A stretch of 64,000 nt of DNA from Nitrospirota bacterium (GCA_016208905.1 JACQXG010000039.1:3439-67438); one strand, 5' to 3'. Positions 378 through 62,156 are shown, counted from the first letter of the stretch. The notes: generated from the letters alone by a model not told the origin. A program made the numbers and translations.

Positions 378-399
378 GGGATAATTATAACAGAAGGGT

Positions 400-1479
<1,080 letters not shown>

Positions 1480-1514: not shown

Positions 1515-3044
1515 TTACGGAGATTTGTTTTTCTTCTTCAACCGCTGATTCAGCGCCTGACGCGTAATGCCCAGCAGCGAAGCCGCGCTTCCCTGGTTGT
1601 CGTCACAGCATTTCATGGCTTCGGAAATTATGTGGTCTTCCATTTCCTTTAAGGATGGGAAATGTCCGAATATCTTTTTTAAAGAAGATGAGTTTTCATC
1701 CTCAGGCATGGCCTCAGTTTGCGGCAGCGGCCGCCTTTGTTTTATGAACCCCTTGAAACTGTCCAGGGAAAGTTTCCCTGATTTATACTGCGCAACAGCG
1801 TCATGGACCATGGCCTGAAGTTCGCGGACATTTCCCGGGAACTGATAGTTGGAAAGCAGGGTGATGAGTTCAGGAGAAAGCACAGGCTGCTTCTTGTTCA
1901 TGGTGCCGGCTGATTCTCTAATGAAATGATCAAGCAGCAATGGAATGTCCTGAAGACGTTCGCGGAGGGGAGGAATGTGAATGTGATGCGCGCACAGCCG
2001 GTAATATAAATCATTGCGGAACGATCCCTTTTCTATCTGCTCCTGAATGTCCTGGTTTGAACAGGCGATGATGCGCGCGCCGCTTTTCTCCGGTGTGTCT
2101 GATCCGAGGGGGTAGTAAATCCTTTCCTCCAGCAGGCGCAGGAGCTTCACCTGTGATGATTTGTTCAGGTCGCCTATCTCATCCAGTAAAAGGGTGCCTC
2201 CCGAGGCGCGTACTATCAACCCTTCTCTGTCCTTGTCCGCCCCGGTGAATGCGCCTTTTTTATGGCCGAATAACGTATCAGAGAACATCGTGTCATCCAG
2301 ACCGGCCACATTAACGGCAATATATTCACCTTTCAATCCGCTTGCAAGATGGACTGACCTTGCAACCAGCTCTTTACCGACTCCGGTTTCTCCGGTTATG
2401 AATACCGGCTTCTGTGATTTTGCCACGGCCTCGATGTACTGGAAGATGGCCCGCATCTTTTTACTTTTCGTAATGATCGATGAAAAGGCCGCCTCATTCT
2501 CCAGTTCCCCTGTGAGAAGGTGTTTCTTGAGTGAGGTTATCTCTTCTTCCATCTGCTTGCGCTCAGTGATGTCCCTGACGATATGGATTACACCTATGAG
2601 CTGATTGTTGCCGTCAAATTGGGGCATGGCCCTTATCTCAAGGAATTTATTCAAATGGGGCTCGTACGTTTCAAAGGCGACCGGCTTCTCGGATTTAAGG
2701 CACTCGCAGCTTGGGCAGCCTTTGGGAGGGGAACTCTCTCCGTGGTAATGCTGATAACATTTTGCTGTTTTGGACTTTAAGAAAGGCAGCCCGAGAATTT
2801 TTTCTGCTGCCTTGTTGGCGTGTATGATATTGAAGTCTTTGTCGTGGACCGTGATCATGTCGGTTATGTTATTGAAGGTGTCCTCCCAGCTGTATACCGA
2901 TTGAAAGATCAGCTCGTCCGAGCGTGAATGTTCCCTTTCCATATCGGAAACAAGCTTCCGCATTTCTTCCAGCTCTTTTATAAGCTGTTCTTTTGTTTTT
3001 TCATTATCATTCATAATAATGTTTTTTCTGATGAATGCATCCAA
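1515..3044 (-). CDS. sigma-54-dependent Fis-family transcriptional regulator with N-terminal PAS domain
   Basis: Contains the AAA+ sigma-54 interaction domain (GETGVGKE Walker A and the GAFTGA motif) and a C-terminal HTH. A PAS-like region lies upstream. The track start is a TTG, and ATG at 3014 (MNDNEKTK) is an alternative start. Confidence 0.85.
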   Translation of the reverse strand: MDAFIRKNIIMNDNEKTKEQLIKELEEMRKLVSDMEREHSRSDELIFQSVYSWEDTFNNITDMITVHDKDFNIIHANKAAEKILGLPFLKSKTAKCYQHYHGESSPPKGCPSCECLKSEKPVAFETYEPHLNKFLEIRAMPQFDGNNQLIGVIHIVRDITERKQMEEEITSLKKHLLTGELENEAAFSSIITKSKKMRAIFQYIEAVAKSQKPVFITGETGVGKELVARSVHLASGLKGEYIAVNVAGLDDTMFSDTLFGHKKGAFTGADKDREGLIVRASGGTLLLDEIGDLNKSSQVKLLRLLEERIYYPLGSDTPEKSGARIIACSNQDIQEQIEKGSFRNDLYYRLCAHHIHIPPLRERLQDIPLLLDHFIRESAGTMNKKQPVLSPELITLLSNYQFPGNVRELQAMVHDAVAQYKSGKLSLDSFKGFIKQRRPLPQTEAMPEDENSSSLKKIFGHFPSLKEMEDHIISEAMKCCDDNQGSAASLLGITRQALNQRLKKKNKSP

Positions 3045-3203
3045 AGTCAGAGGAGGGTAAATTTAAAAAGTCATCTCGATACCTTAGCACAGCCTTAATA
3101 GTACAAAAAGATGCGAAAACGCCGCAGCAATTAAAACAGGCTGATGACATTATTTAATATCTTATCGAATTATGAATTTTAAAATTTACCCTCCTCTGAC
3201 TTT
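3043..3203. promoter_or_regulatory. 27-bp inverted repeat pair, with one mismatch, flanking about 107 bp in the divergent promoter region between the PAS sigma-54 regulator and the DUF1460-ampG genes
   Basis: aaagtcagaggagggtaaatttaaaaa (3043-3069) against ttttaaaatttaccctcctctgacttt (3177-3203). Confidence 0.7.
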
Positions 3204-5709: not shown

Positions 5710-7203
5710 TCACAATGAACCATTAAGGTCGACCGGCAATCTGCCCTGAAAAACGGCTTCCCCTCTCAGGCATTTAACAACAGAGGACTGCGCCTGCAAG
5801 GTGGTATCATATGCGGCAATGAGCGCGCCGGCTTCCATAAAATGCCTGAGCACATAAGGGCTGCCGAAAGATATCACGATTGAATGGCGGGATTTTTTAA
5901 TGATATCTCTGATTATATTTATTTCTTCATCCCTGATACCCGAACTTCCCTCCCATGCGGCTATTTTGGTAAAGAGCGCAACGATCAGGACTTCCCGCAG
6001 GGTCTCGCCTTTATAAGCCTTTATATTTATTGATCCCGGAATGAAGGTTTTAAGGACTGACAAATCATGTTTGCTCTCGTCGGCTGAGAATACAAGAGAA
6101 ATATTCTGAACGATCTTCAGGGAATGAAAGTCAGGTTTATTTTTAACGAGGGTCACCGATCTGCCGGAGATTGTATCGGAGAGCTTTTTATTTGCATGAT
6201 AGTCCGGCTGGACTTTCTGGATGCTCTTTATCCTGGCTTTGTATTGCAAAATCCGCTCTACGGCAGCGTCTATCTTTTCTTCCTTCATTTCACCGGATGC
6301 GACTGCGTGTTTAAGTTCTTTAACAACGGAGCCGGCATCTGCAGGATGGAGCAGGACATCGACTCCGGCATTTATGCACGTTGAAGGGACATTTTTGAAT
6401 TCCTTAAGCGCGTGCATGTTCAATGCATCTGTGAGCACAAGCCCTTCAAATCCAAGACCTGTTCTTAAAAGACCGGTTATGACCTTCTTTGAAAGAGATG
6501 CTGGGAGGTCATCAATGGCCGGGACTCTGATGTGTCCTGTCATGATACTGCTGACATTTGTTTTAATGGCTTCAATGAATGGAAATAAGTCTGTATCATT
6601 CAGCTCTCTGAAAGATTTCGAGATGACCGGCAGAGATATGTGGGAATCAATAGCTGTGTCCCCGTGTCCGGGAAAGTGTTTGGCGCAGCTTATTAGCCCT
6701 GTATTTTCCAGAGTCCTGATATACATCTTCCCATACCACGCTACAATCTCAGGATTGTCGGAAAAGGCCCTGGTGCAGATTATCGGATTATCGGGGTTCC
6801 TGTTTACATCAAGGACAGGGACCAGCGGCATATTGATCCCGATATCAATTGACTCGATAGCTATTGCCCTGATTGCATCTCCAAGGAGCTTTACACTTTC
6901 GAAGTCATGCCTGTCGATCGCTGCTGCTACAGCCATCTGCCCCGGGAAAGAAGTAGCCCCGTCTATTTGCTGCCCCACGCCCCTTTCTATGTCGGAGGCA
7001 ATAAATAACGGGATTTCAGAGATGGATTGCAGTTTAGCGATAAAATTTTTTATCTCATCTTTTTCACCGCCGAAGACTATGAAACCTCCGATCCCCTTTC
7101 GGACAAGCTCAACAGCATGTTCCGCATATGAAGATAAAGAAATCTTCTCTCCGTCAATCCTGCTGATGATGAGCTGGAAGAGTTTTTTATCAAGACCTGG
7201 CAT
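5710..7203 (-). CDS. nagZ: beta-N-acetylhexosaminidase, GH3 family, NagZ-like, with a C-terminal extra domain
   Basis: Carries the KHFPGHGDT...DSH GH3 catalytic motif and is 497 aa long. Confidence 0.8.
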   Translation of the reverse strand: MPGLDKKLFQLIISRIDGEKISLSSYAEHAVELVRKGIGGFIVFGGEKDEIKNFIAKLQSISEIPLFIASDIERGVGQQIDGATSFPGQMAVAAAIDRHDFESVKLLGDAIRAIAIESIDIGINMPLVPVLDVNRNPDNPIICTRAFSDNPEIVAWYGKMYIRTLENTGLISCAKHFPGHGDTAIDSHISLPVISKSFRELNDTDLFPFIEAIKTNVSSIMTGHIRVPAIDDLPASLSKKVITGLLRTGLGFEGLVLTDALNMHALKEFKNVPSTCINAGVDVLLHPADAGSVVKELKHAVASGEMKEEKIDAAVERILQYKARIKSIQKVQPDYHANKKLSDTISGRSVTLVKNKPDFHSLKIVQNISLVFSADESKHDLSVLKTFIPGSINIKAYKGETLREVLIVALFTKIAAWEGSSGIRDEEINIIRDIIKKSRHSIVISFGSPYVLRHFMEAGALIAAYDTTLQAQSSVVKCLRGEAVFQGRLPVDLNGSL

Positions 7204-8380: not shown

Positions 8381-8447
8381 TGAATTCTATTCCAATGGTT
8401 GTAGACATGGAAGGCTGTGGAAGAATTTCTATACGACACCTCTAAAA

Positions 8448-8480
8448 AAGAGTTAAGAGTTAGGAGTAAAGAGTTAAAAG
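8448..8480. repeat. heptanucleotide tandem repeat array (agagtta-type)
   Basis: Reads agagttaagagttaggagtaaagagttaaaag. It is enclosed by a long-range inverted repeat, 8411-8422 against 8551-8563. Confidence 0.7.
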
Positions 8481-8616
8481 AAGAAAAACAATATGATTGC
8501 TATGAAGCAAAAATCTAATAAGTCGTTTGTCGATTATAGAAATTCTGGAACAGACTTCCATGTCTGCTGAAAGATATCAAATAAAATTTAAGATATTTGA
8601 TGACTAATAACATAGT

Positions 8617-9125: not shown

Positions 9126-10670
9126 TTAATTCTCTTTTTCTTCTATCCCGTATTTCTTCATTTTATACCCGATCTGCCTCGGGGTAATGCCGAGAAGACG
9201 CGCTGCCTTTGCATGAATCCAGCCTGACTTTCCCAGGGCATTAAGGATATTGGCCTTTTCAAGTTCCTCGATATTTGCTGTTAAGGATGATAATTTGTCG
9301 GAATTTTTCAAACGGCATATATTCATAGATACAGGCAGATCTGTCGCGGTTATTATATCTGAACCGGACATAACAACGAGCCTTTCAATAGTGTTTTCAA
9401 GCTCTCTTACATTACCTGGCCAGTGGTAATGTATAAAAACCTGCAAAGCGCTTTTATCCATGACCACGAAGCGGACGTTTTCTTCATTGAATTTATGTAA
9501 GAAATGTTCAATGAGGATTGGTATGTCCTCTTCTCTTTCCCGCAGTGGAGGTAAGAAAAGCGGTATCACATTAAGTCTGAAATAGAGGTCTTCCCGGAAT
9601 TTCCCCTGCGATACCAGGTTTTCAAGGTTGCGGCTTGTTGCGGTAATTATCCTGACATCAACCTTCAGTGTCTTTTCACTGCCTATCCTCTCAAATTCCC
9701 TTTCCTGCAGGACACGCAGGATTTTCGGCTGAAGCGCTGTGGGCAGGTCTCCTATTTCATCAAGGAAAATGGTCCCCTTATTTGCAAGCTCGAACTTGCC
9801 GCTTCTGGAGGAAACGGCCCCGGTAAAGGCCCCTTTTTCATGTCCGAAAAGCTCTGATTCTAAAAGTCCTTCGGGAATTGATGCGCAATTAAACTTAATA
9901 AAAGGCCCTTTGTTCCTCTGGCTCATGTAATGGATTGCTTTGGCGATCAGTTCTTTCCCGGTTCCGCTTTCACCCCGCAAAAGTACGGTTGCCTTTGAAG
10001 GAGAGACCCTGTGGACTGCCTTAAAAACCTCCTGCATCCTGTCAGAGTCGCCGATAATGTTATCAATGCTGTATTTGCCTTTTAACTCTCTCTTTAAATG
10101 CTCCTTTTCTTTTTCGATCCGCTCATAGCTTTCCCATAATTTAATAAACTGAGCTATTAATGAAGCCACGATTTCCAGGACCCTGAGGTCGTCATCGACG
10201 TTCCCCTTTTTTTCCGAATAAATCCTGTCAACGCTCAAAACTCCAAGCACTTCATTTTTAAGCTTGATGGGTATGCACAGGAAAGAAATACCGTCTTTTT
10301 CCGGCCTTGCCCCGGTCTTGTTCAGAAACAAAGGCTCTTTCCCGATATTGGGAATTACCATAGGTATCTTTTTTTCCAATACCCGGCCTACTATCCCTTC
10401 ACCAATCCGGTATTTACCTTTCTCGATATTATCTTTTGTAAGACCATGTGCCGCAACAATGCGGAGTTCCCCTGAAATCTTGTCGAGCAGAAATACGCAC
10501 CCCCTCTGCATTTCAAGCAGGCTCCCGATTGTCGACATTACTGACGACAGGTTTTTCTCAAGGGCAAAAGAGGTGGTGAGGACCTTGCTGACCTCAAGAA
10601 TGGCAGTCAGTTCCCTGTTTTTCTGGAGGATGAGGTCGGTTTTTCTATTTTTATCCGGGACGGATTTCAT
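9126..10670 (-). CDS. sigma-54-dependent transcriptional activator with N-terminal GAF domain (NifA/FhlA-like architecture)
   Basis: Has a GAF-like N-terminus, an AAA+ domain with GESGTGKE and GAFTGA, and a C-terminal HTH. It is divergent from the radical-SAM locus. Confidence 0.85.
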
Positions 10671-17803: not shown

Positions 17804-17872
17804 CATTTCAAATAATGCGGATGTTGGAAAATAAATTAATTTTCGATACATTAAACGCAATATTCATTAATT
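17804..17872. repeat. 69-bp dispersed repeat, copy 2, lying 5' of thiL
   Basis: About 94% identical to 7262-7330. Confidence 0.85.
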
Positions 17873-18010
17873 GGAGCGTACACACTTTAATTTAAAGCCT
17901 CATGCATAATTTCTATTATAGTTATCGAGTTAATTAATTTATTTTTCAATGTCTGCATTATTTAGATTAATCACAACGGATTTCAGGGGTTAAGGAGCAG
18001 GATAAAATCC

Positions 18011-18070
18011 AGTTGTTAGTTGTTTGTTTTTAGTTGTTAGTCTGAAAACAAAAAACTGACAACTAACAAC
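18011..18070. terminator. heptamer-repeat hairpin downstream of lon
   Basis: agttgttagttgtttgtttttagttgttagtc ... ctgacaactaacaac are inverted, followed by TTTTTT. Confidence 0.5.
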
Positions 18071-18166
18071 TTTTTTCTCACCTGAATCCCCGCACCCTGT
18101 CTTGACTTACGGAATTAAAGAGGATGTTATTATGTTATGGGATTAAATTCCAGCAATTATTAAAAG

Positions 18167-22455: not shown

Positions 22456-22462
22456 AGGAGGC

Positions 22463-22565
22463 AGAGTTCAGAGTTATGAGTTATGAGTTATAAATCAGAG
22501 AATGATCGCAAGAAATAGGTTACATTCTTAATTCTTAACTCTTGACTCTTGACTCGTAACTCTTT
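22463..22565. repeat. inverted pair of heptanucleotide tandem arrays (gagttat x3 and aactctt-type), forming a hairpin
   Basis: Array 1 reads agagttcagagttatgagttatgagtta and array 2 reads ttaactcttgactcttgactcgtaactct. The pgpA TTG start lies inside array 2. Confidence 0.75.
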
Positions 22566-27156: not shown

Positions 27157-28491
27157 TTACATCCTGAATATCTCAGGCTTGATCCATAAGATGGCAAGTG
27201 TTCCGGCAAGACAAAAACTTGCGCTTGTTAAAAGGGCATTTTGAGTGCCCACGTAATGTGCCAGGCTTCCGACGGTAAAATTCCCAAGGGGCGCCATTCC
27301 GAGAAACATTGTTGTAAAAGAACTCATTACCCTTCCCCTTAATTCATCAGGGACGGTAAGCTGTATAAGGTTGTTTGCCGTGGCTATCTGATTGATTGCT
27401 CCGAGGCCGACAAAAAAGAGCATCGCATAGGAAAGCCAGACTGTTTCAGAAAATGAAAATATAAGGAGCGCCACCGAAAAAATTATTCCTGCCGCTGCCA
27501 TGACCATCCCTTTTTTTGAGGTATTCCCCTTTAATGCCAGTCCTATCGCGCCTGTAAGGGCGCCTGCGCCTGCACATCCCATTAATATGCCGAGGCCTGT
27601 CTCTCCTGTTTTCAATATGTCCCTGGCATATACCGGTAAAAAAGAAATATAGGGGAACCCGAAGAAACTGATTATGCCTGCTGCTATCAAAAGAGTATAT
27701 ACCGACGGAGTGTTGCGGATATATTTAAGTCCTTCCTTTAAAGAAGTTTTGATTCCGGATGTCGTGCCTCTTTGCACATCAACAGGCTTGAAGCGCATTT
27801 TAATCAGGGCAGCGATTAAAGCAAGAAAGCTCAAGGCATTAATAAAAAAACATGAAGCAAGACCGACAGAACCCATGAGAATACCGGCCACTGCCGGTCC
27901 GATCATCCTTGCACTCTGAAAAGCCATGGAATTGAGCGCGATGCCATTGAGCAGGTCCTCCTTGCCAACCAGCTCAATGATAAAGGACTGCCGTGCAGGA
28001 ATTTCAAAAGCAAGCACAGTGCCTATGAGAAAGGCTATGATTAGCGCGTGCCAGATATTGACAACTCCGGTTGCGACCAGGACAGCGAGTATCAGTGTAA
28101 GAGATAAAAGTATGATATGGGCTATCAGCACTATAATCCTTTTTGAGTGCCTGTCTGCAATCACCCCGCCGGCCAGTGAGAAAAGGAGGATCGGGGCCGA
28201 CGCTGCTGTCCCTGCCAGTCCCAGAAAGAAAGGGGAGTTTGTTAATTCATAGACCAGCCAGCTCTGGGCGGCCTGGTGCATCCAGGTCCCTGTAAGTGAT
28301 ATTATCTGCCCGGTCCAGAAAAGCCTGAAATTCCTGTGTCTGAGCGCTGCAAAAGGGTGATATGCTTCCATTGTTAGTAATGATAACATACGAGGCTCTT
28401 GCAGAAGTCTTCTCTTTGTCACCTCGAACGAAGAGAGAGGTCTTATACATTGTTGATAGCAAAAGATTTCTCTCTTTGGTCGAAATGACAT
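27157..28491 (-). CDS. MFS transporter
   Basis: Has 12-TM MFS topology and an FRLFWTGQ N-terminal motif. The likely start is the internal Met at about 28389. Confidence 0.7.
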   Translation of the reverse strand: MSFRPKREIFCYQQCIRPLSSFEVTKRRLLQEPRMLSLLTMEAYHPFAALRHRNFRLFWTGQIISLTGTWMHQAAQSWLVYELTNSPFFLGLAGTAASAPILLFSLAGGVIADRHSKRIIVLIAHIILLSLTLILAVLVATGVVNIWHALIIAFLIGTVLAFEIPARQSFIIELVGKEDLLNGIALNSMAFQSARMIGPAVAGILMGSVGLASCFFINALSFLALIAALIKMRFKPVDVQRGTTSGIKTSLKEGLKYIRNTPSVYTLLIAAGIISFFGFPYISFLPVYARDILKTGETGLGILMGCAGAGALTGAIGLALKGNTSKKGMVMAAAGIIFSVALLIFSFSETVWLSYAMLFFVGLGAINQIATANNLIQLTVPDELRGRVMSSFTTMFLGMAPLGNFTVGSLAHYVGTQNALLTSASFCLAGTLAILWIKPEIFRM

Positions 28492-28571
28492 CTACAGGAA
28501 TTGAATTCTTTTGCAAGAGGCTCATATCATAAAGCGGTTCAAGCGGCTTATATTGTGGTATAATTTTAACC

Positions 28572-32051: not shown

Positions 32052-32112
32052 AAGTGAGAAGTGGGAAGTAAGAAGTGAGAAGTAAAGAAAACGCCTTGAA
32101 CTTCCTTCTTAC
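32052..32112. repeat. heptanucleotide tandem array (gaagtga-type) with inverted partner
   Basis: aagtgagaagtgggaagtaagaagtgagaagtaaag ... acttccttcttactt. The same unit occurs in frame inside murD. Confidence 0.75.
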
Positions 32113-37468: not shown

Positions 37469-39427
37469 ATGGATCGTATTAAACTGCATATTGAGCCGAA
37501 CACTTGCAACCGGGATGAGACAACCTGCTCCTGCTGTGCTGCTGATATGTTCGTAGAAAAACCTCCCTTCTGGAAACGCCGGAAGTTAATTACCGGAGGC
37601 GCTGCCGGTTTGCTTATGGTCGCTGCCCTTATTATTAATGTATTCACATCCCTTGATATCGCCGCTCAATTTATGTATGTCATTGTAGTGGCTGTTGCCG
37701 GAAAGGAAATCCTGTTGAAGGCATTCCGCTCGGCGCTGAAACGGCGTCTGGACATGAACTGTCTCATGAGTCTTGCCGCCTTCGGGGCCTTTTTCATAGG
37801 CCATGGCGAGGAAGGCGCTGCGGTGATTTTCCTTTTCTTTATTGCTGAGAGCCTGGAAGAGTACGCTGCTGACAAGGCAAAACAGTCAATAAGTCAGCTG
37901 CTGAGTCTGGCGCCGGAAACAGCGAAAGTAAAGAGAGGAGGCGGCGAAATAGAGATGCACACACATGAAATCAATGTGGGAGATATCATCGTCATCAGAC
38001 CAGGAGAAAAAGTACCTCTGGATGCGAAAGTTGTAAACGGTCATTCATATGTTAACGAAGCGCCTATTACCGGAGAATCGGTCCCCGCAGAGAAAGCAGG
38101 CGGTGACAGGGTTTATGCCGGGACTCTAAACGAAGAAGGCTATCTTGAGGCTGAGGTCACAAAAAAAGCGGACGACACCGTGCTCTCCAGGATTGTAAAA
38201 CTTGTCGAGGAAGCCGAGAGGAAAAAATCAAAGACCGAAAAGTTCATAGATAAATTTGCGCGTATATATACTCCGGCGGTGATCAGCCTGGCCTTTGCCG
38301 CCTTTCTTATCCCGACCTTTATTCTGGGGCTTCCCTGGGACGTATGGCTCTACCGTGCATTAGTGCTGCTCGTTATATCCTGTCCGTGCGCCCTCGCAAT
38401 ATCAACACCTGTCGCAATGGTATCAGCTATAACCTGCGCCGCAAGGCACGGCGTACTTATTAAAGGAGCAACGTTTATTGAGGAGCTGAGTAAAATAAAG
38501 GCCTTTGCGTTCGACAAGACCGGCACGCTGACAAAAGGCAGGCTGGAAGTTACCGACATAATCGGCTTAAACGGCAATTCTCCGGAGAGTGTCCTGGCTA
38601 TCGCTGCGTCGCTGGAGTCACGTTCAGGACATCCCATTGCAAAGGCAATTCTTAATAAGGCCGCGGGGGAAGGGACAAACCCGAAAGAAATTACTTCCTT
38701 CAAATCAATTCAGGGAAAGGGCCTGAGGGCTGAAATCAACGGAACAGTGTATTACGCGGGGGCAAAGAACCTTTTTGATGAATTGTCCATAAAAGTGCCG
38801 GATGAATTATCTCGCTTTGAATCAGAAGGTAAGACCTCAATCCTTATCTCGAATGAAGACGCGGGCGTAGGGATTATCGCTCTAGGCGATAAAATTCGGG
38901 ACAAAACCCCCGCGACAATATCAGACCTTAAGAAGTTACATATCAGGACTGAAATGCTCACGGGCGATAATAAAGAAGTTGCCGCCGCACTGGCAAAAAT
39001 GACTGGGGTTGATGAATATTACGCGGAGCTTTTACCTGAAGACAAGGTAATAGTCGTCGAAAAACTCGCCAGGAGATTCGGCTCCGTAGCCATGGTCGGT
39101 GATGGAGTTAACGATGCCCCTTCCCTTGCCGCTGCCAACGTGGGCATAGCCATGGGGACTGCCGGTTCCGACGTAGCAATAGAAACCGCGGACATAGCTT
39201 TAATGCATGATGACCTGTCAAAAATAGATTATCTTATCCATTTAAGCAAAAAAACCATGCGTATAGTTAAGCAGAATATTATGGTCTCAATCATTATTAA
39301 GGGCAGCTTAACGGTCCTGGCAATTCCGGGTTTTATTAATCTCTGGATCGCTGTCGGTATCGGCGATATGGGACTGAGTCTTGCGGTTATTTTAAATGCG
39401 ATAAGGTTGACCAGGGTAAGGGACTGA
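37469..39427 (+). CDS. heavy-metal (Cd/Zn/Pb-type) P1B-type ATPase
   Basis: Has a CPC TM motif, DKTGTLT and GDGVNDAP, and a Cys-rich N-terminus. Confidence 0.9.
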   Translation: MDRIKLHIEPNTCNRDETTCSCCAADMFVEKPPFWKRRKLITGGAAGLLMVAALIINVFTSLDIAAQFMYVIVVAVAGKEILLKAFRSALKRRLDMNCLMSLAAFGAFFIGHGEEGAAVIFLFFIAESLEEYAADKAKQSISQLLSLAPETAKVKRGGGEIEMHTHEINVGDIIVIRPGEKVPLDAKVVNGHSYVNEAPITGESVPAEKAGGDRVYAGTLNEEGYLEAEVTKKADDTVLSRIVKLVEEAERKKSKTEKFIDKFARIYTPAVISLAFAAFLIPTFILGLPWDVWLYRALVLLVISCPCALAISTPVAMVSAITCAARHGVLIKGATFIEELSKIKAFAFDKTGTLTKGRLEVTDIIGLNGNSPESVLAIAASLESRSGHPIAKAILNKAAGEGTNPKEITSFKSIQGKGLRAEINGTVYYAGAKNLFDELSIKVPDELSRFESEGKTSILISNEDAGVGIIALGDKIRDKTPATISDLKKLHIRTEMLTGDNKEVAAALAKMTGVDEYYAELLPEDKVIVVEKLARRFGSVAMVGDGVNDAPSLAAANVGIAMGTAGSDVAIETADIALMHDDLSKIDYLIHLSKKTMRIVKQNIMVSIIIKGSLTVLAIPGFINLWIAVGIGDMGLSLAVILNAIRLTRVRD

Positions 39428-45318: not shown

Positions 45319-46101
45319 TTAATAATCTCCTTCCACCAGCACAGCCGAAAAATGACCGATGACAGCTTTGCTTTTTAAAAGTACAGGAAGTTTCTTGTCA
45401 TCATCAGTTGCCCAGATAGTAATGTCTCCGGTCTTCGGGAAAATCCCTTCTGATTTAATAATAGGTTTAATAACTATTGTGTCGAAGTCACCCGCAGGCA
45501 CACTGATCCTTTCTTTCCTCAGTACCTGCACTTCGGTCTTCCAGAGTTTCTTGCTGTCAAAAATATCAATATAAGCAGGCTGTCCTGTTTTCAGGTCCCA
45601 CTTTGTCATTTCATAAAAGGCTGACAGGGGATCATACGCGGGATTGTCAAAATAGAACTCCTCAATTTCTTCATCCAGTATATTATGATATATGATTTTC
45701 AGGGGTTTGCCGTCAATTTTTCTTTCGAAATATGTGACCTTATCTCTTTTGTGGCGTCCCTTCTGCACCTTTAAAATAAATTTTTTAGGATATCCGTCAG
45801 GATAAAGTATGCTTTCCGTAATATCGTCAACTTCATAGAAAAGAGAAATCAGCGGGGCCGAGGTCGCATGGGTTTTTATTGTTATACCTTCCGGTGTGCT
45901 GTTATACTCCAATACTGCCTCACCGGCCTTTATCCCGGACCAGTATATGTAATAAACAAATCTTTTATTGACTGTCTGGCCGGCTTCAACGGAGAAAGGG
46001 GAGACAGAAGAAAGAACACAGAGTACAGAGCACAGATTCAGGATTATAACGAATATTCTTGCTTGCATGTATTTTGAATTCCGGATGCAGGGCTTTCTCA
46101 T
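45319..46101 (-). CDS. secreted hypothetical protein, possibly DUF3108, adjacent to LPS core genes
   Basis: A signal peptide follows the internal Met at about 46068. The family is a guess from context. Confidence 0.35.
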   Translation of the reverse strand: MRKPCIRNSKYMQARIFVIILNLCSVLCVLSSVSPFSVEAGQTVNKRFVYYIYWSGIKAGEAVLEYNSTPEGITIKTHATSAPLISLFYEVDDITESILYPDGYPKKFILKVQKGRHKRDKVTYFERKIDGKPLKIIYHNILDEEIEEFYFDNPAYDPLSAFYEMTKWDLKTGQPAYIDIFDSKKLWKTEVQVLRKERISVPAGDFDTIVIKPIIKSEGIFPKTGDITIWATDDDKKLPVLLKSKAVIGHFSAVLVEGDY

Positions 46102-56515: not shown

Positions 56516-58039
56516 ATGGTCGATTCAAAACTTTTAGAGGGTCTGAAGATAATATTCAAACACGGCCCCCGGGACAAGGAGATAAAAGGCATTGCCTATG
56601 ATTCCAGATTAGTCAAAAAAGATTTTCTTTTCGTGGCCGTCAGAGGATTTGCTGTAAACGGCCATGATTATATAAAGGATGCAGTAAACAGGGGGGCTAC
56701 CGTGGTAGTCGCAGAGCATCCGGTAAAAAAAACAGATTTAAGACAGTTTGGTATAGAAGAGGAACCCACATTTGTCTGCGTTCCCGACAGCAGGGAAGCG
56801 CTGGCCCTCATATCTGCTGCTTTTTACGGACATCCTTCTGATAGTTTGTCATTGATAGGAATTACAGGGACAAATGGAAAAACGACCACGAGTTTTATTA
56901 CGAAAAGTATAATCGACAGCGGAGGGGAAAATGCTGGTCTGTTGGGAACAATTTGTTATATGACAGGAGACAGGACTACGAATGCATTTAATACAACTCC
57001 GGAGTCATTAGACCTGCAAAGATATTTAAGCGAAATGACGGACAATAAACTGGAATATGCCGTTATGGAAGTTTCTTCACATGCGCTGGCACTCAAAAGA
57101 GTCCAGGGATGTTCTTTTAAGGTGGCTGCCTTTACAAACTTTACCCAGGACCATCTTGATTTTCACGGCACAATGGATGAGTACTTTAAGGCCAAGAGCA
57201 GGCTTTTCAATTATCTCGACGCAGACGGAACTGCTGTCTTAAACCGGGATGATAAAAGGGTAAGGACTATGGCCAGAAAACTGAATTGTAATGTAATAAC
57301 ATTTGGCATTGAAGAAGGGGCCATGATAAGGGCGGAGAATATAAGAGAGTCAGGGGCAAGGGGCAAGGGGCAAGGGGCGAGGGAAGGCGCATTTGGTATG
57401 TCATTTGACGTCAAAACACCAGAAGGAGGATTTGAAATCAATTCATCTTTTATCGGGCGTTTTAATGTCTTCAACATTCTTACATCTATCGGGATAGCGA
57501 ATGCACTGGGCTTTAATGAAGATATAATCCGGCAAGGAATAAAGGACGCGAAACCTGTTGACGGGCGGTTTGAAAACATTGACGAGGGGCAGAATTTCTT
57601 ATGCATTGTTGATTATGCCCATACGGAGGACGCGCTAACAAAGCTCATTGAAGAGGCAAGGGCCATAACGGGAAAGAGGATTATTACGGTCTTCGGATGC
57701 GGCGGCGACAGGGACAGGAGCAAAAGGCCGATAATGGGCGCCGTAGCCACGGAGTTGAGCGATATGGTTGTGATTACCTCGGACAACCCGCGCACAGAAG
57801 ATCCTGACGAGATTATAAGGGACATCGTAAAGGGAGTTAAAAAAAATAATTATACCGTACAACCCGGCAGGGAGGACGCCATTAAGGAAGCGATAGCAAT
57901 GGCAAGAGAAGGAGACACGGTGCTGATCGCGGGAAAAGGGCATGAGAACTATCAGGAGATTAAAGGGGTGAGGCATCACTTCAGTGATAAGGAGATATTA
58001 AAGAAGGAAATAAAGAAGCGATTAGCGGTAAGCGGATAG
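56516..58039 (+). CDS. murE: UDP-N-acetylmuramoyl-L-alanyl-D-glutamate--2,6-diaminopimelate ligase
   Basis: Has GITGTNGKTT, and DNPR indicating meso-DAP specificity. It carries an in-frame heptamer array at 57354-57388. Confidence 0.9.
   Translation: MVDSKLLEGLKIIFKHGPRDKEIKGIAYDSRLVKKDFLFVAVRGFAVNGHDYIKDAVNRGATVVVAEHPVKKTDLRQFGIEEEPTFVCVPDSREALALISAAFYGHPSDSLSLIGITGTNGKTTTSFITKSIIDSGGENAGLLGTICYMTGDRTTNAFNTTPESLDLQRYLSEMTDNKLEYAVMEVSSHALALKRVQGCSFKVAAFTNFTQDHLDFHGTMDEYFKAKSRLFNYLDADGTAVLNRDDKRVRTMARKLNCNVITFGIEEGAMIRAENIRESGARGKGQGAREGAFGMSFDVKTPEGGFEINSSFIGRFNVFNILTSIGIANALGFNEDIIRQGIKDAKPVDGRFENIDEGQNFLCIVDYAHTEDALTKLIEEARAITGKRIITVFGCGGDRDRSKRPIMGAVATELSDMVVITSDNPRTEDPDEIIRDIVKGVKKNNYTVQPGREDAIKEAIAMAREGDTVLIAGKGHENYQEIKGVRHHFSDKEILKKEIKKRLAVSG
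57354..57388 (+). repeat. in-frame heptanucleotide tandem array (ggggcaa x3-4) inside murE
   Basis: ggggcaaggggcaaggggcaaggggcgagggaagg encodes GARGKGQGAREG. Confidence 0.8.
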
Positions 58040-60539: not shown

Positions 60540-60548
60540 AAAAGAGGT

Positions 60549-60626
60549 ATCAGCAATCAGGGATCAGCAGTCAGGACTTCGATAATTTTAAGACTGACAG
60601 CTTACAGCTGAAAGCTGATAGCTTAT
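60549..60626. repeat. inverted pair of heptamer arrays (atcagca-type and gctgaya-type) in the mraY-murD spacer
   Basis: atcagcaatcagggatcagcagtcagga ... gactgacagcttacagctgaaagctgatagcttat. Confidence 0.75.
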
Positions 60627-60629
60627 AAA

Positions 60630-62156
60630 ATGATACAGGTAGAAGAAAAGAAAAATAAATTTAAGGGCAAAAAAGTGCTCGTTGTCGGTCTTGCAAGAAG
60701 CGGCACCGGGGCGGCCAACCTTCTTGTTGAATTAGGGGCCAAGGTAACAATTACCGACAGGAAATCGCCCGGTTCTTTAGAAGATCAAATAAATAAATTG
60801 CTGCCGGCTGTCAAGTTCATAGAAGACAGCAAAGCCGCGGACATTATTGATTCACTCGACTTAATAGTTATCAGTCCCGGGGTGCCTCTATATGTTCCAT
60901 TCCTTGTTAAGGCAAGTATAAAAGGGATACCTGTTATCGGCGAGCTTGAGCTCGCGTATCAGGTAATAAAGGGGCAAGGGGCAAGGGGCAAGGGGCAAGA
61001 GGAGTTTATCGGCATTACCGGCACGAACGGGAAATCTACGGTCACTACGCTTGTTGACCTTATGCTGAGAGAAGCAGGGTACAATACACTGTTAGGTGGG
61101 AATATCGGTAATGCATTGACAGAAGAAATTTTAAAATGGGGCAAAGGGCAAGGGGCAAGGGGCGAGGGAGAAGAAACAACGGATCCGTCATCCGTCACCC
61201 GTCACCCGTTACCTGATTTTATCGTTGCGGAGATATCAAGTTTTCAGCTTGAAACAATAGAGGAATTCAGGCCGAACATTGCGGCTATTCTTAACATAAC
61301 TCCGGACCACCTTGACAGGTATAACAGCATGAGCGATTACATAGATGCAAAGGCAAGGATTTTTGAAAAACAGACACCGGAAGATTTTTTGATCATTAAT
61401 GCGGATGATCCGGAGATAGCAAAAGTGAGAAGTGAGAAGTTGGAAGTAAGAAGTGAAAAACCAAAAACTATTTATTTCAGCCGGACGAAAGAGATGGAAG
61501 GCGCATATTTAAGAGATGGAATAATTTATTGCAATTTTGCCCACTTCTCCCTTCCCGCTTCTCCCTTCCCGCTTATATCTCAGAATGAGATAAAAATTAA
61601 GGGAGCGCACAATCTTGAAAATGCCATGGCGGCTTCTTTGATGGCTCTGATCTCAGGATGCAGTCCAGCTGCCGTCAGGACCGTATTGAAGACTTTTCCC
61701 GGACTTGAACACCGGATTGAATTTGTTGATGAAGTCAATGGCGTCAGATTCATAAATGATTCAAAAGGCACAAACGTAGGCGCTGTTGCCAAATCCCTGG
61801 AAGACTTTAACGACGTAATCCTGATTATGGGGGGGTTGGATAAAGGGAATGACTTTTCGATATTGCGGGATTTGATAGAGAAAAAAGTTAAAGTCCTCAT
61901 TTTAATCGGCAAGGCAAAAGAGGTCATTGCAAAGGCGTTGGGCGCGATAACTGAGACGCATCAGGTGTCTGATCTCGGAGAGGCGGTTGCATTATCAATG
62001 TCAAAAGCCTCTGCAGGTGATGTTGTAATGTTATCGCCGGGTTGCGCCAGCTTTGACATGTTTAAAGACTTTGAAGACAGGGGAAGGAAGTTTAAGGAAG
62101 CGGTAGAAGAGTTAAGAGTGAACAGGAATATATTTTCCAGCACTGACACTATTTGA
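60630..62156 (+). CDS. murD: UDP-N-acetylmuramoylalanine--D-glutamate ligase, about 50-60 aa longer than usual because of in-frame repeat insertions
   Basis: The GITGTNGKST P-loop is present and the protein is colinear with MurD, but with low-complexity inserts encoded by heptamer arrays. Confidence 0.9.
   Translation: MIQVEEKKNKFKGKKVLVVGLARSGTGAANLLVELGAKVTITDRKSPGSLEDQINKLLPAVKFIEDSKAADIIDSLDLIVISPGVPLYVPFLVKASIKGIPVIGELELAYQVIKGQGARGKGQEEFIGITGTNGKSTVTTLVDLMLREAGYNTLLGGNIGNALTEEILKWGKGQGARGEGEETTDPSSVTRHPLPDFIVAEISSFQLETIEEFRPNIAAILNITPDHLDRYNSMSDYIDAKARIFEKQTPEDFLIINADDPEIAKVRSEKLEVRSEKPKTIYFSRTKEMEGAYLRDGIIYCNFAHFSLPASPFPLISQNEIKIKGAHNLENAMAASLMALISGCSPAAVRTVLKTFPGLEHRIEFVDEVNGVRFINDSKGTNVGAVAKSLEDFNDVILIMGGLDKGNDFSILRDLIEKKVKVLILIGKAKEVIAKALGAITETHQVSDLGEAVALSMSKASAGDVVMLSPGCASFDMFKDFEDRGRKFKEAVEELRVNRNIFSSTDTI
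60971..61003 (+). repeat. in-frame heptamer array (ggggcaa x4) in murD, preceding the P-loop
   Basis: Encodes KGQGARGKGQEE. Confidence 0.8.
61137..61213 (+). repeat. in-frame double heptamer array (ggggcaa-type, then ccgtcay x4) in murD
   Basis: Encodes GKGQGARGEGEETTDPSSVTRHPLP. Confidence 0.8.
61425..61458 (+). repeat. in-frame heptamer array (gtgagaa/gtaagaa) in murD
   Basis: Encodes VRSEKLEVRSEK. The same unit occurs in the intergenic array at 32052. Confidence 0.8.
61543..61577 (+). repeat. in-frame heptamer array (cttctcc/cttcccg x2) in murD
   Basis: Encodes HFSLPASPFPLI. Confidence 0.75.

Follow-up and report, generated by a model that had tools for sequence, protein, structure and literature searches.

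Heptameric repeats have long been noticed without being explained, and have been described almost entirely as intergenic. In 1990, Mazel et al. reportedly described short tandemly repeated repetitive (STRR) heptamers in cyanobacteria; the STRR units are CCCCAGT, TTGGTCA and CAACAGT, and a 1997 paper by Vioque is said, going by its title, to place such repeats inside the gene for the RNase P RNA of heterocyst-forming species. Here we describe the gene murD, encoding UDP-N-acetylmuramoyl-L-alanine--D-glutamate ligase, in a 64,000-nucleotide stretch of DNA from Nitrospirota bacterium (GCA_016208905.1, JACQXG010000039.1:3439-67438; ‘the window’ throughout, meaning that whole stretch), which carries five in-frame heptanucleotide arrays. 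We think it probable, if some way short of certain, that these are lineage-specific arrays belonging to the same general class as the STRRs and the heptameric repeats of Xanthomonas and Nostoc, and that they are tolerated at four permissive sites in the MurD protein.

The repeats of Xanthomonas and Nostoc are G-rich heptameric simple sequence repeats (SSRs) with units GGGAATC and GGGGA(C/T)T (Rehm et al. 2015, PMC4692102). They peak at four units, form 70-75 convergent inverted pairs per genome and have no identified function; 89-93% of them are intergenic, they are under-represented on the coding strand, and their sites are conserved between species whilst their length varies, with polymerase slippage cited as an idea for the preference for seven nucleotides (PMC4692102). 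The 7-bp STRRs of cyanobacteria form hairpins between genes, as between hupS and hupL (PMC2670836). Two further systems concern coding DNA: the Rickettsia palindromic elements (RPEs), which a later article summarising Ogata et al. (2000) describes as palindromic repeats lying in frame in housekeeping genes (PMC10969869), and neuO of E. coli K1, where a heptanucleotide tract of 3-53 repeats, most commonly 20, leaves 65.6% of alleles out of frame (PMC13001214). The literature searched yielded no account of heptamer arrays from Nitrospirota, nor of any in Mur ligases.

Five heptanucleotide arrays at four sites in an intact MurD

Tandem Repeats Finder (TRF) returns five arrays of period 7 in murD, of 4.1-5.0 units each and all inside the intact open reading frame (ORF; coordinates in Table 1), at the positions where a first-pass annotation, made from the sequence of the window, had proposed at least five in-frame insertions; five arrays there are, but four insert sites, with arrays 2 and 3 sharing one. 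Solved MurD structures span 437-456 amino acids (aa) and the window protein has 508, which is 57 residues more than 3lk7 (451 aa). On alignment to 3lk7, 45 of these 57 residues fall at the four insert sites and the remainder in the N- and C-terminal tails, so that the additional length can indeed be put down mainly to the repeats, as had been proposed. As seven leaves a remainder of one on division by three, an array is read in all three frames and gives a peptide with a seven-residue period, GARGKGQ being an example.

Insert 1 (residues 114-122, +9 aa relative to 3lk7) consists of array 1, the only perfect tract of the five, and encodes KGQGARGKGQ immediately ahead of the P-loop strand; the predicted local distance difference test (pLDDT) score falls below 50 at residues 118-123. 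Insert 2 (residues 167-195, +22 aa; pLDDT below 50 at 174-191) holds arrays 2 and 3, the former sharing its GGGGCAA unit with array 1 and with an array in murE, the latter homologous to a CCTGTCG array in the related locus L083. At insert 3 (residues ~262-276, +5 aa), array 4 encodes KVRSEKLEVRSEK, which is predicted to lie within a helix (residues 261-271 of an AlphaFold2 (AF2) model, block-mean pLDDT ~88-93). Array 5, an alternation of CTTCTCC and CTTCCCG, encodes HFSLPASPFPL at insert 4 (residues ~301-313, +9 aa), in a modelled loop between strands 298-301 and 313-317. The prediction is therefore of disordered loops for inserts 1 and 2, an extended helix for insert 3 and a β-hairpin loop for insert 4.

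The protein that accommodates these segments matches MurD in the PDB (3lk7 at E=1e-76, and the E. coli, P. aeruginosa and A. baumannii enzymes), and its homologues carry precomputed Pfam assignments to PF21799, PF08245 and PF02875. The three-domain Mur ligase fold, the P-loop GxxGKS/T and the positions of the catalytic Glu, His and carbamylated Lys are all present, and the family alignment shows no variation at K135, S136, T137, E201, D226, H227 or K241 (P-loop, catalytic Glu, Asp-His and Lys); with its catalytic positions conserved in this way, the window MurD is very probably functional as an enzyme. The AF2 model, built with 25 homologues, has a mean pLDDT of 82 and superposes on MurD crystal structures with a Foldseek template-modelling (TM) score of up to 0.86. 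Mapping the inserts onto it, as the first-pass annotation had proposed, places them on loops or at a helix end, with the fold predicted to be kept. Since murD, a gene of peptidoglycan synthesis, is essential and present in single copy, and its product is structurally solved, it offers a comparative system in which the reading frame acts as a strict filter on repeat change.

A period-7 bias across the window and the clade

Scored under one scheme, the window holds seven arrays of period 7 against 0.05 expected from Markov shuffles, and virtually none of any other period from 4 to 21, save four arrays of period 14 (a multiple of seven) and one of period 8. Counted as 14-mers, GGGGCAAGGGGCAA has 10 matches in the window against 0.48 expected, AAGTGAGAAGTGAG has 8 against 0.36 and CCGTCACCCGTCAC has 4 against 0.12; bar single matches with two mismatches at 38665 and 29505, the 14-mers of these three units are confined to murD, murE and the intergenic array at 32052-32086. 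Over 443 kb, comprising the window and 28 loci of the clade (L001-L017 and 11 metagenome loci), TRF finds 144 arrays of period 7, compared with 14 for period 6 and 26 for period 8. The copy number has its mode at four, in that 67 of the 144 lie at 4.0-4.9 copies and only three have six or more units, the low end of this distribution being clipped by the detection threshold. By crude stop-to-stop ORF calls, array density per 10 kb is ~10 in murD, 8.5 in intergenic DNA and at most 0.78 in other coding DNA; murD thus resembles intergenic DNA and exceeds other coding sequence at least 13-fold, as would be expected if a few of its loops were effectively unconstrained.

These counts, which for this genome cover the 64 kb of the window, uphold the earlier suggestion of a genome- and lineage-wide class of heptanucleotide repeat resembling the cyanobacterial STRRs. 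A more specific claim, that the murD units recur in intergenic hairpin arrays, survives only in part. AAGTGAG, the unit of insert 3, does recur between genes (32052-32086), but that array is unpaired; GGGGCAA is found elsewhere in the window only within murE coding sequence (57352-57383), and the intergenic pairs at 18011/18042, 22462/22524 and 60545/60594 are built on other units.

With the Xanthomonas and Nostoc repeats, the arrays described here share the 7-nt unit, the excess at period 7, the peak at four units, the convergent inverted pairs, G-rich members that fit a G-quadruplex (G4), and sites that are conserved among related species whilst length and sequence vary. They differ in their host phylum, Nitrospirota, and in a far greater diversity of units (GGGGCAA, AAGTGAG, CCGTCAC, GTCAGCG, GAGTTAT, AAATTTC and others); in a four-unit mode that holds also for units unable to form a G4; and in placing five in-frame, coding-strand arrays in one essential gene at clade-conserved sites. 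Like cyanobacterial STRRs, they are tandem heptamers, capable of forming hairpins and able to sit inside a functional gene, but the unit sequences and the host taxon are different, and the intragenic STRR case concerns an RNA gene whereas here the arrays are in-frame and protein-coding. The published units (GGGNATC; STRR1-3) do not occur among those of murD (GGGGCAA, CCGTCAC, AAGTGAG and CTTCTCC), the nearest in any relative being GGGATCA (L007). The murD arrays are, then, of the same kind as the heptameric SSRs and STRRs, but not of the same sequence family. The phenomenon is thereby extended to Nitrospirota, with a preference for four units that in this clade is independent of G4 potential.

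That independence bears on whether G4 formation could be the cause of the four-unit mode. Defined as four or more tracts of at least three Gs with loops of 1-7 nt, G4 motifs number six in the window against 0.48 expected, and as canonical motifs murD arrays 1, 2 and 5 and the murE array are candidates for G4 folding. In this clade, however, units with and without a G3 or C3 run show the mode equally (50% and 46%, respectively, at 4.0-4.9 copies), and we reject G4 formation as its cause.

As a separate observation, an enrichment of period-7 arrays is also seen at certain high-GC Nitrospirota loci, L030 with eight arrays in 21 kb being one, and a few such arrays occur at Pyrinomonadaceae (Acidobacteriota) loci; the observation takes in L030, L050, L063, L069 and L071, among others, and the heptamer bias may extend more widely than the Thermodesulfovibrionia-like clade.

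Same sites, different units: turnover among relatives

The best 120 protein matches to the window MurD are Nitrospirota proteins of the kind found in Thermodesulfovibrionales-type metagenome-assembled genomes (MAGs), 476-538 aa long and at most 78% identical. DNA from relatives was drawn from 80 genome loci and 80 metagenome loci, with murD aligned from 45. The four sites are also filled in most relatives down to ~54% identity, ~35 non-redundant Nitrospirota (Thermodesulfovibrionia-like MAGs) among them, and often by arrays or hairpins, yet the sequences differ: at insert 1, where the window has AAGGGGC, the unit is TCAGCTG in L001, AGTTATG in L002, GGGGTCA in L003, GGGTCAA in L006, GGGATCA in L007, AAGGGTC in L013, TCGGCAA in L014 and GGCAAGA in L017. 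No arrays occur at the four sites in Magnetobacteria-like (L018-L026) or Nitrospiria-like (L030, L096, L097) relatives, in which the loops are short or non-repeat (insert 4 of the L018 type is longer, yet not an array), and the inserts were not found in MurD of unrelated phyla represented by PDB sequences.

As judged from these alignments, the inserts belong to one sub-clade only and are old as sites, being neither recent invasions nor artefacts of assembly. The idea that repeats had invaded coding sequence, for which the first-pass annotation took the orthologues as arbiter, is accordingly in part refuted: the insertions are not recent in this genome, with their sites occupied throughout most of the sub-clade, and as repeat arrays they are absent from the Magnetobacteria-like and Nitrospiria relatives and from unrelated phyla. 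Short tandem repeats can be mis-assembled, and an assembly or sequencing artefact has to be mentioned for that reason; with an intact ORF, and with analogous arrays at matching positions in dozens of MAGs and metagenome contigs that separate studies assembled independently, we give it a negligible chance.

Within the array-bearing lineages, inserts 1 and 2 are only 7-43% identical where the protein core is 81-92% identical, whereas in the array-less L018-L025 the corresponding loops are 82-100% identical against a core of 86-91%. Individual steps can be made out. Between L021 and L092 (91% core identity), insert 1 differs by exactly 21 nt, or three GTCAGCG-type units, such that a two-unit proto-repeat in L021 (GGTCAGT AGTCAAA) corresponds to five units in L092, and in P0007 insert 4 is longer by 7 aa. 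On an evolutionary timescale, these differences agree with the view that the arrays are prone to slippage.

The reading frame has left its mark on this process. All of ~40 complete homologous murD ORFs from the 45 loci are full length, and none is frameshifted. Three consecutive AAGTGAG units would bring a TGA into frame, but the third unit in the window reads AAGTTGG, giving Leu, and at this position relatives have Trp (SEKLEV / SEKWEV); likewise, the middle AGTTATG unit of L002 reads AGTTAAG, by which another TGA is removed. Turnover of this sort, in frame and free of stops, is the pattern to be expected of slippage when selection on an essential gene acts as the filter, and the birth of an array, its expansion by three units, the repair of stop codons and the co-evolution of arms (see below) can all be read from alignments of this one gene.

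The same observations speak to the proposal, made at the outset for this locus, that the arrays are contingency loci, with slippage by a non-multiple of three toggling murD within a population. Heptanucleotide tracts in coding DNA can certainly act as switches, as neuO is translated only if its repeat number is divisible by three (PMC13001214); the murD arrays resemble that tract in being a coding 7-nt tandem repeat, in changing by in-frame steps of three units and in encoding a 7-residue peptide repeat, and array 1 is perfect. There the likeness ends: the units of the neuO tract are perfect and stand at the 5′ end of a phage gene that is dispensable, with the long and mostly out-of-frame alleles noted above (PMC13001214), whilst murD has 4-5 mostly imperfect units in internal loops of an essential gene, no out-of-frame allele among ~40 homologues, invariant catalytic residues, and inserts 3 and 4 that are recognisable clade-wide and hence fairly stable. 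By established knowledge, an ‘OFF’ state of a single-copy essential gene would be lethal and not adaptive. A long near-perfect tract, out-of-frame alleles and a dispensable gene, usually one concerned with the cell surface or with modification, are the marks of a contingency locus; murD has none of them, and we consider phase variation here extremely improbable.

It might instead be the peptides that are selected, with Gly/Lys/Gln/Arg-rich and Pro/Ser-rich loops serving, for example, as contacts within the divisome. Insert 3 is a confidently predicted helix, and the peptides of inserts 3 and 4 can be recognised in many relatives. Selection on codons cannot, however, yield a 7-nt period in the DNA; inserts 1 and 2 are predicted to be disordered and are scarcely conserved between close relatives; and in three of the relatives (family B, below) the insert 3 peptide is wholly different whilst its DNA keeps its complementarity to insert 4. 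Adaptive loops therefore seem to us highly unlikely, only marginally less so than a switch. The arrays are probably best regarded as fast-turning, tolerated repeat DNA in an essential gene, which does not act as a switch and in all likelihood is no adaptation at the level of the protein. This carries a warning for annotation and phylogenetics, as repeat DNA is the source of the low-complexity segments in these proteins, and homology does not hold for them at the level of single residues.

At the C-terminus of the homologue P0076 (alignment columns ~583-603) there is a further 7-residue repeat, MQDARCK MQDARYK IQDARCK MQDA, which suggests that a heptamer array downstream of the gene was absorbed into the C-terminal tail of the MurD ORF.

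Inverted pairs and hairpins

The main addition to the first-pass annotation is the inverted-pair architecture of the arrays, with conserved coding sequence lying between the arms of one pair. Arrays 4 and 5 form arms of 33 nt (61423-61455 and 61542-61574) that are 79% Watson-Crick complementary and lie 86 nt apart, and the RNA of this region folds as a single long stem (-47.2 kcal/mol, z=-4.0; z=-2.0 as DNA). The 86 nt between them encode PKTIYFSR...GAYLRDGIIYCN, a segment present in every MurD aligned, insert-less ones included; as ancestral coding sequence lies between the arms, they were not delivered together as one element.

A completely different unit makes up the arms of L013, L014 and L017, with ATAGGCG at the left and CTATCGC, the exact reverse complement, at the right. 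Pairing of insert 3 with its own insert 4 scores 17.0 for family A (AAGTGAG) and 15.3 for family B (ATAGGCG), as opposed to 7.7 for insert 3 of A with insert 4 of B and 6.7 for the converse. On permutation, the observed sum of arm pairing is reached in 0 of 20000 shuffles, a figure that is inflated by relatedness and really represents about two independent unit families. Strong pairing of inserts 3 and 4 (duplex z≤-3.6) is found in 8 of ~35 non-redundant genomes; elsewhere it has decayed.

At insert 1, the window retains a single (left) arm, where relatives have an array, a spacer and an inverted array, as in L006 (GGGTCAA x4 ... GCCCCTT x4) and L003 (GGGGTCA x4 ... CAACCCC x4), or else a long hairpin; in 10 of the relatives the insert 1 hairpin is significant (fold z≤-3). 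Insert 2 of the window was considered as a good hairpin and set aside, as its fold reaches only z=-1.9 and its arms are weakly complementary (GGG:CCC); the GGGGCAA unit seems to have displaced the former 5′ arm. Within a genome, inserts 1 and 2 are alike, with similarity scores of 24.5 in the window, 16 in L001 and 14 in L006 against a cross-genome mean of ~6-7 (6.8 for the window row), and none of 20000 permutations reaches the observed sum, which suggests local copying between the two sites.

Hairpins and G4s so placed could have been selected as nucleic-acid structures, whether to tune the speed of translation or the co-translational folding of MurD and MurE at domain boundaries or to govern the processing or stability of the dcw (division and cell wall) transcript. 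The clade-wide conservation of the insert sites would fit such a role, as would the stability of the insert 3/4 stem and the co-variation of its arms between two unit families, the position of insert 1 at the junction of domains 1 and 2, with a strong hairpin there in ten relatives, and the excess of G4 motifs, of which three fall on the murD or murE sense strand; moreover, a part in stabilising transcripts has been suggested for STRR hairpins between genes (PMC2670836). A selected mRNA helix, though, should favour G-U pairs, and the sense-strand mismatches in nine well-paired insert 3/4 stems comprise 10 G-U, 22 A-C and 26 others; the lack of any excess of G-U over A-C points to an origin at the DNA level followed by neutral decay, and leads us to reject a selected sense-RNA structure for this stem. 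The hairpins have decayed in most relatives, insert 1 of the window has no partner arm, and both units and lengths are hypervariable; no Rfam family reaches its gathering threshold anywhere in the window, and no regulatory role has been found for the analogous repeats (PMC4692102). Taken broadly, a selected structure is in our view unlikely.

A slightly poorer prospect still is that the inserts arrived as miniature mobile hairpins, akin to MITEs (miniature transposable elements with inverted repeats), REPINs (hairpin-forming doublets of repetitive extragenic palindromes, REPs) or RPEs, inserted as units by a transposase encoded elsewhere. The self-contained arrangement of insert 1 in relatives has this appearance and may have arrived as a single unit, L001 shares one composite of a GTCAGC array and a palindrome between inserts 1 and 2, and within-genome likeness of these inserts is raised. 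The RPEs are, besides, a known case of in-frame palindromic insertion in housekeeping genes (PMC10969869); so far as the summary of that work goes, they have in common with the four murD sites a hairpin-capable repeat DNA in frame, a position compatible with the fold and an added peptide segment. On the same account they are ~150 bp long, with conserved family sequences, and are regarded as MITE-like, whereas the murD inserts are arrays or pairs of ~30 nt (27-66 nt), with no element sequence in common, that can grow in situ and one pair of which brackets pre-existing coding sequence. That pair cannot be one element, and the step from a two-unit proto-repeat in L021 to the array of L092 speaks for growth in place. 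We find no conserved element sequence, terminal inverted repeats or target duplications, the units are very diverse and not genome-specific overall, and no transposase or REP-associated tyrosine transposase (RAYT) was found among the 40 window ORFs scanned against Pfam, with ~15 smaller or remaining ORFs lying outside the scan.

In L001, inserts 1 and 2 (~10367-10400 and ~10540-10575) each consist of a GTCAGC-type array followed by a GC-rich perfect palindrome, GGGGCGAGGCG ... CGCCTCGCCC, and other short perfect palindromes stand at insert sites in L002 (CAGGGACAGGTTTAAAACCTGTCCCTG) and L083 (AGGGACGATTCATGAATCGTCCT); there may be a small class of dispersed palindromic repeat tied to the arrays.

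A proposed model for the origin and maintenance of the arrays

Synthesis of these findings leads us to a model in four steps. The replication machinery of the lineage would be biased towards slippage by seven nucleotides, seeding arrays and resizing them, and the resulting 7-nt loops would escape mismatch repair. Template switching or gene conversion would then copy arrays between nearby sites and between the arms of inverted pairs, as a consequence of which arms would stay complementary and inserts 1 and 2 of one genome would come to look alike. From the comparison of relatives, purifying selection would appear to discard variants that shift the frame or create a stop, so that net changes of 3n (such as plus or minus three units) survive, and where a unit would read TGA in frame, a point change has made it TTG or TGG. 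The encoded peptides, finally, would be by-products, in the shape of the two disordered loops, helix extension and β-hairpin loop predicted by AF2.

For the second step there is a possible precedent in template-switch mutagenesis at quasipalindromes, reportedly set out by Ripley in 1982 and in later work on E. coli. Correction of one arm by the other at the level of DNA could keep inserts 3 and 4 complementary without selection; what is known, however, is a hotspot for point mutation in short quasipalindromes, and its application to 30-nt arms lying 86 nt apart is our extrapolation.

Several points weigh against this model of tolerated, slippage-driven repeats. The slippage and template-switch steps are deduced from end states in different species, and complementary switching of arms rests on about two unit families (A and B), a third family, C, being weak and many arms decayed. 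That inserts have stayed at exactly the same four sites through deep divergence could also be a sign of usefulness. Three of the arrays are sense-strand G4 motifs, a placement that is under-represented among the published repeats (PMC4692102), and a function for them is possible. A test for genome-specific units across all arrays came out negative, with 8.9% of distant within-genome pairs matching to within one mismatch against 6.8% between genomes, and homogenisation of units within a genome was accordingly dropped save for the local likeness of inserts 1 and 2. The model does not account for the period of seven or for the mode of about four units, which in this clade is as strong for units that are not G-rich.

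A bolder version would have a lineage-wide process, acting on DNA, that writes and maintains complementary pairs of ~30-nt heptamer arrays, even to either side of conserved coding sequence, and makes loops of MurD, MurE and probably MurC into permanent hot spots, either by a distinct form of hairpin-templated copying or through recruitment of the hairpins and G4s to control expression or folding in the dcw cluster. We rate this as doubtful, on a par with selected structures in murD and murE. With slippage, copying and selection on the frame as the preferred account, the locus supplies two cases open to experiment: whether the complementarity of arms is kept by a DNA mechanism or by selection, and how far a disordered insertion is tolerated beside the P-loop of a Mur ligase.

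Other arrays and repeats in the window and in neighbouring genes

The window murD lies in the dcw cluster, with murE, murF and mraY upstream and ftsW downstream; MurE (56516-58039) was identified by PDB matches, MurF, MraY and FtsW by position and ORF size, and mraZ, rsmH and ftsI by position only. The features of the window are collected in Table 1. About half of all arrays are unpaired. Among the intergenic pairs, that between mraY and murD (60545/60594) has 30-nt arms, 73% complementary and 19 nt apart, with duplex z of -2.6 and -3.3.

Table 1. Positions of murD, its arrays, and other arrays, inverted pairs and G4 motifs in the window
Feature	Position	Strand	Details
murD (UDP-N-acetylmuramoyl-L-alanine--D-glutamate ligase)	60630..62156	+	intact 508-aa ORF
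array 1 / insert 1	60969..60999	+	AAGGGGC x4.4, 100% matches (TRF)
array 2 / insert 2, 5′ arm	61138..61168	+	GGGGCAA-type x4.4, 87% (TRF)
array 3 / insert 2, 3′ arm	61185..61213	+	CCGTCAC x4.1, 90% (TRF)
array 4 / insert 3	61423..61456	+	AAGTGAG x4.9, 81% (TRF)
ancestral MurD coding segment (PKTIYFSRTKEMEGAYLRDGIIYCNFA) between complementary arms	61457..61539	+	alignments
array 5 / insert 4	61540..61574	+	period 14, CCCGCTTCTCCCTT x2.5, 95%; as period 7 only 71% (TRF)
in-frame array in murE	57352..57383	+	AGGGGCA x4.6 (TRF); encodes GARGKGQGAR, ~8 aa extra relative to solved MurE
intergenic inverted pair, mraY-murD	60545..60623	+	ATCAGCA-type then CTGACAG-type (TRF)
intergenic inverted pair, OsmC-PgpA	22462..22564	+	GAGTTAT-type / TCTTAAC-type; duplex z -5.7 and -4.5
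intergenic inverted pair 18011/18042	17998..18084	+	AGTTGTT / AACAACT-type, 43-nt arms, 74% complementary, duplex z=-4.5
intergenic AAGTGAG-type array (unit of murD insert 3)	32052..32086	+	between HDOD and Pyr_redox genes; no clear inverted partner
G4 motif in array 1	60971-60995	sense	scan
G4 motif in array 2	61138-61162	sense	scan
G4 motif in murE array	57353-57377	sense	scan
G4 motif in array 5	61549-61570	antisense	scan
other G4 motif	396-422		scan
other G4 motif	5931-5954		scan

The site of the murE array, at about residue 278 of MurE, is likewise occupied in relatives, by the AGGGGCA unit in L001 (6734-6755) and L006 (6604-6633) and by an AGAAGTC unit in L007 (6713-6744) and L008 (6735-6771). 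A further ORF of ~500 aa, some 3.5 kb downstream of murD, carries heptamer arrays within its frame (residues ~353-391) in three relatives: L001 (14911-14966, an inverted pair of GAGTTAG and AACTCAT), L002 (15152-15184) and L006 (15006-15026). This ORF is probably MurC, and there may thus be a third Mur ligase with a repeat hot spot.

Four other inverted repeats in the window, at 3043-3203, 8403-8565, 17810-17963 and 28388-28527, have arms of 25-32 nt that are 80-94% complementary and enclose loops of 90-101 nt, a geometry like that of the murD insert 3/4 pair, with arms that are mutually unrelated in sequence. The last of them spans the 5′ end of the ORF at 27157-28491 together with the spacer upstream, and the other three are intergenic; the pair at 8403-8565 encloses a heptamer array (8448-8477).

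One more coding array, of AGAGCAC type, lies at 46013-46036 in a DUF3108 protein (ORF 45319-46101, minus strand), where it falls at N-terminal residues ~22-29, ahead of the Pfam domain (residues 50-255) and in a position that is probably unconstrained.

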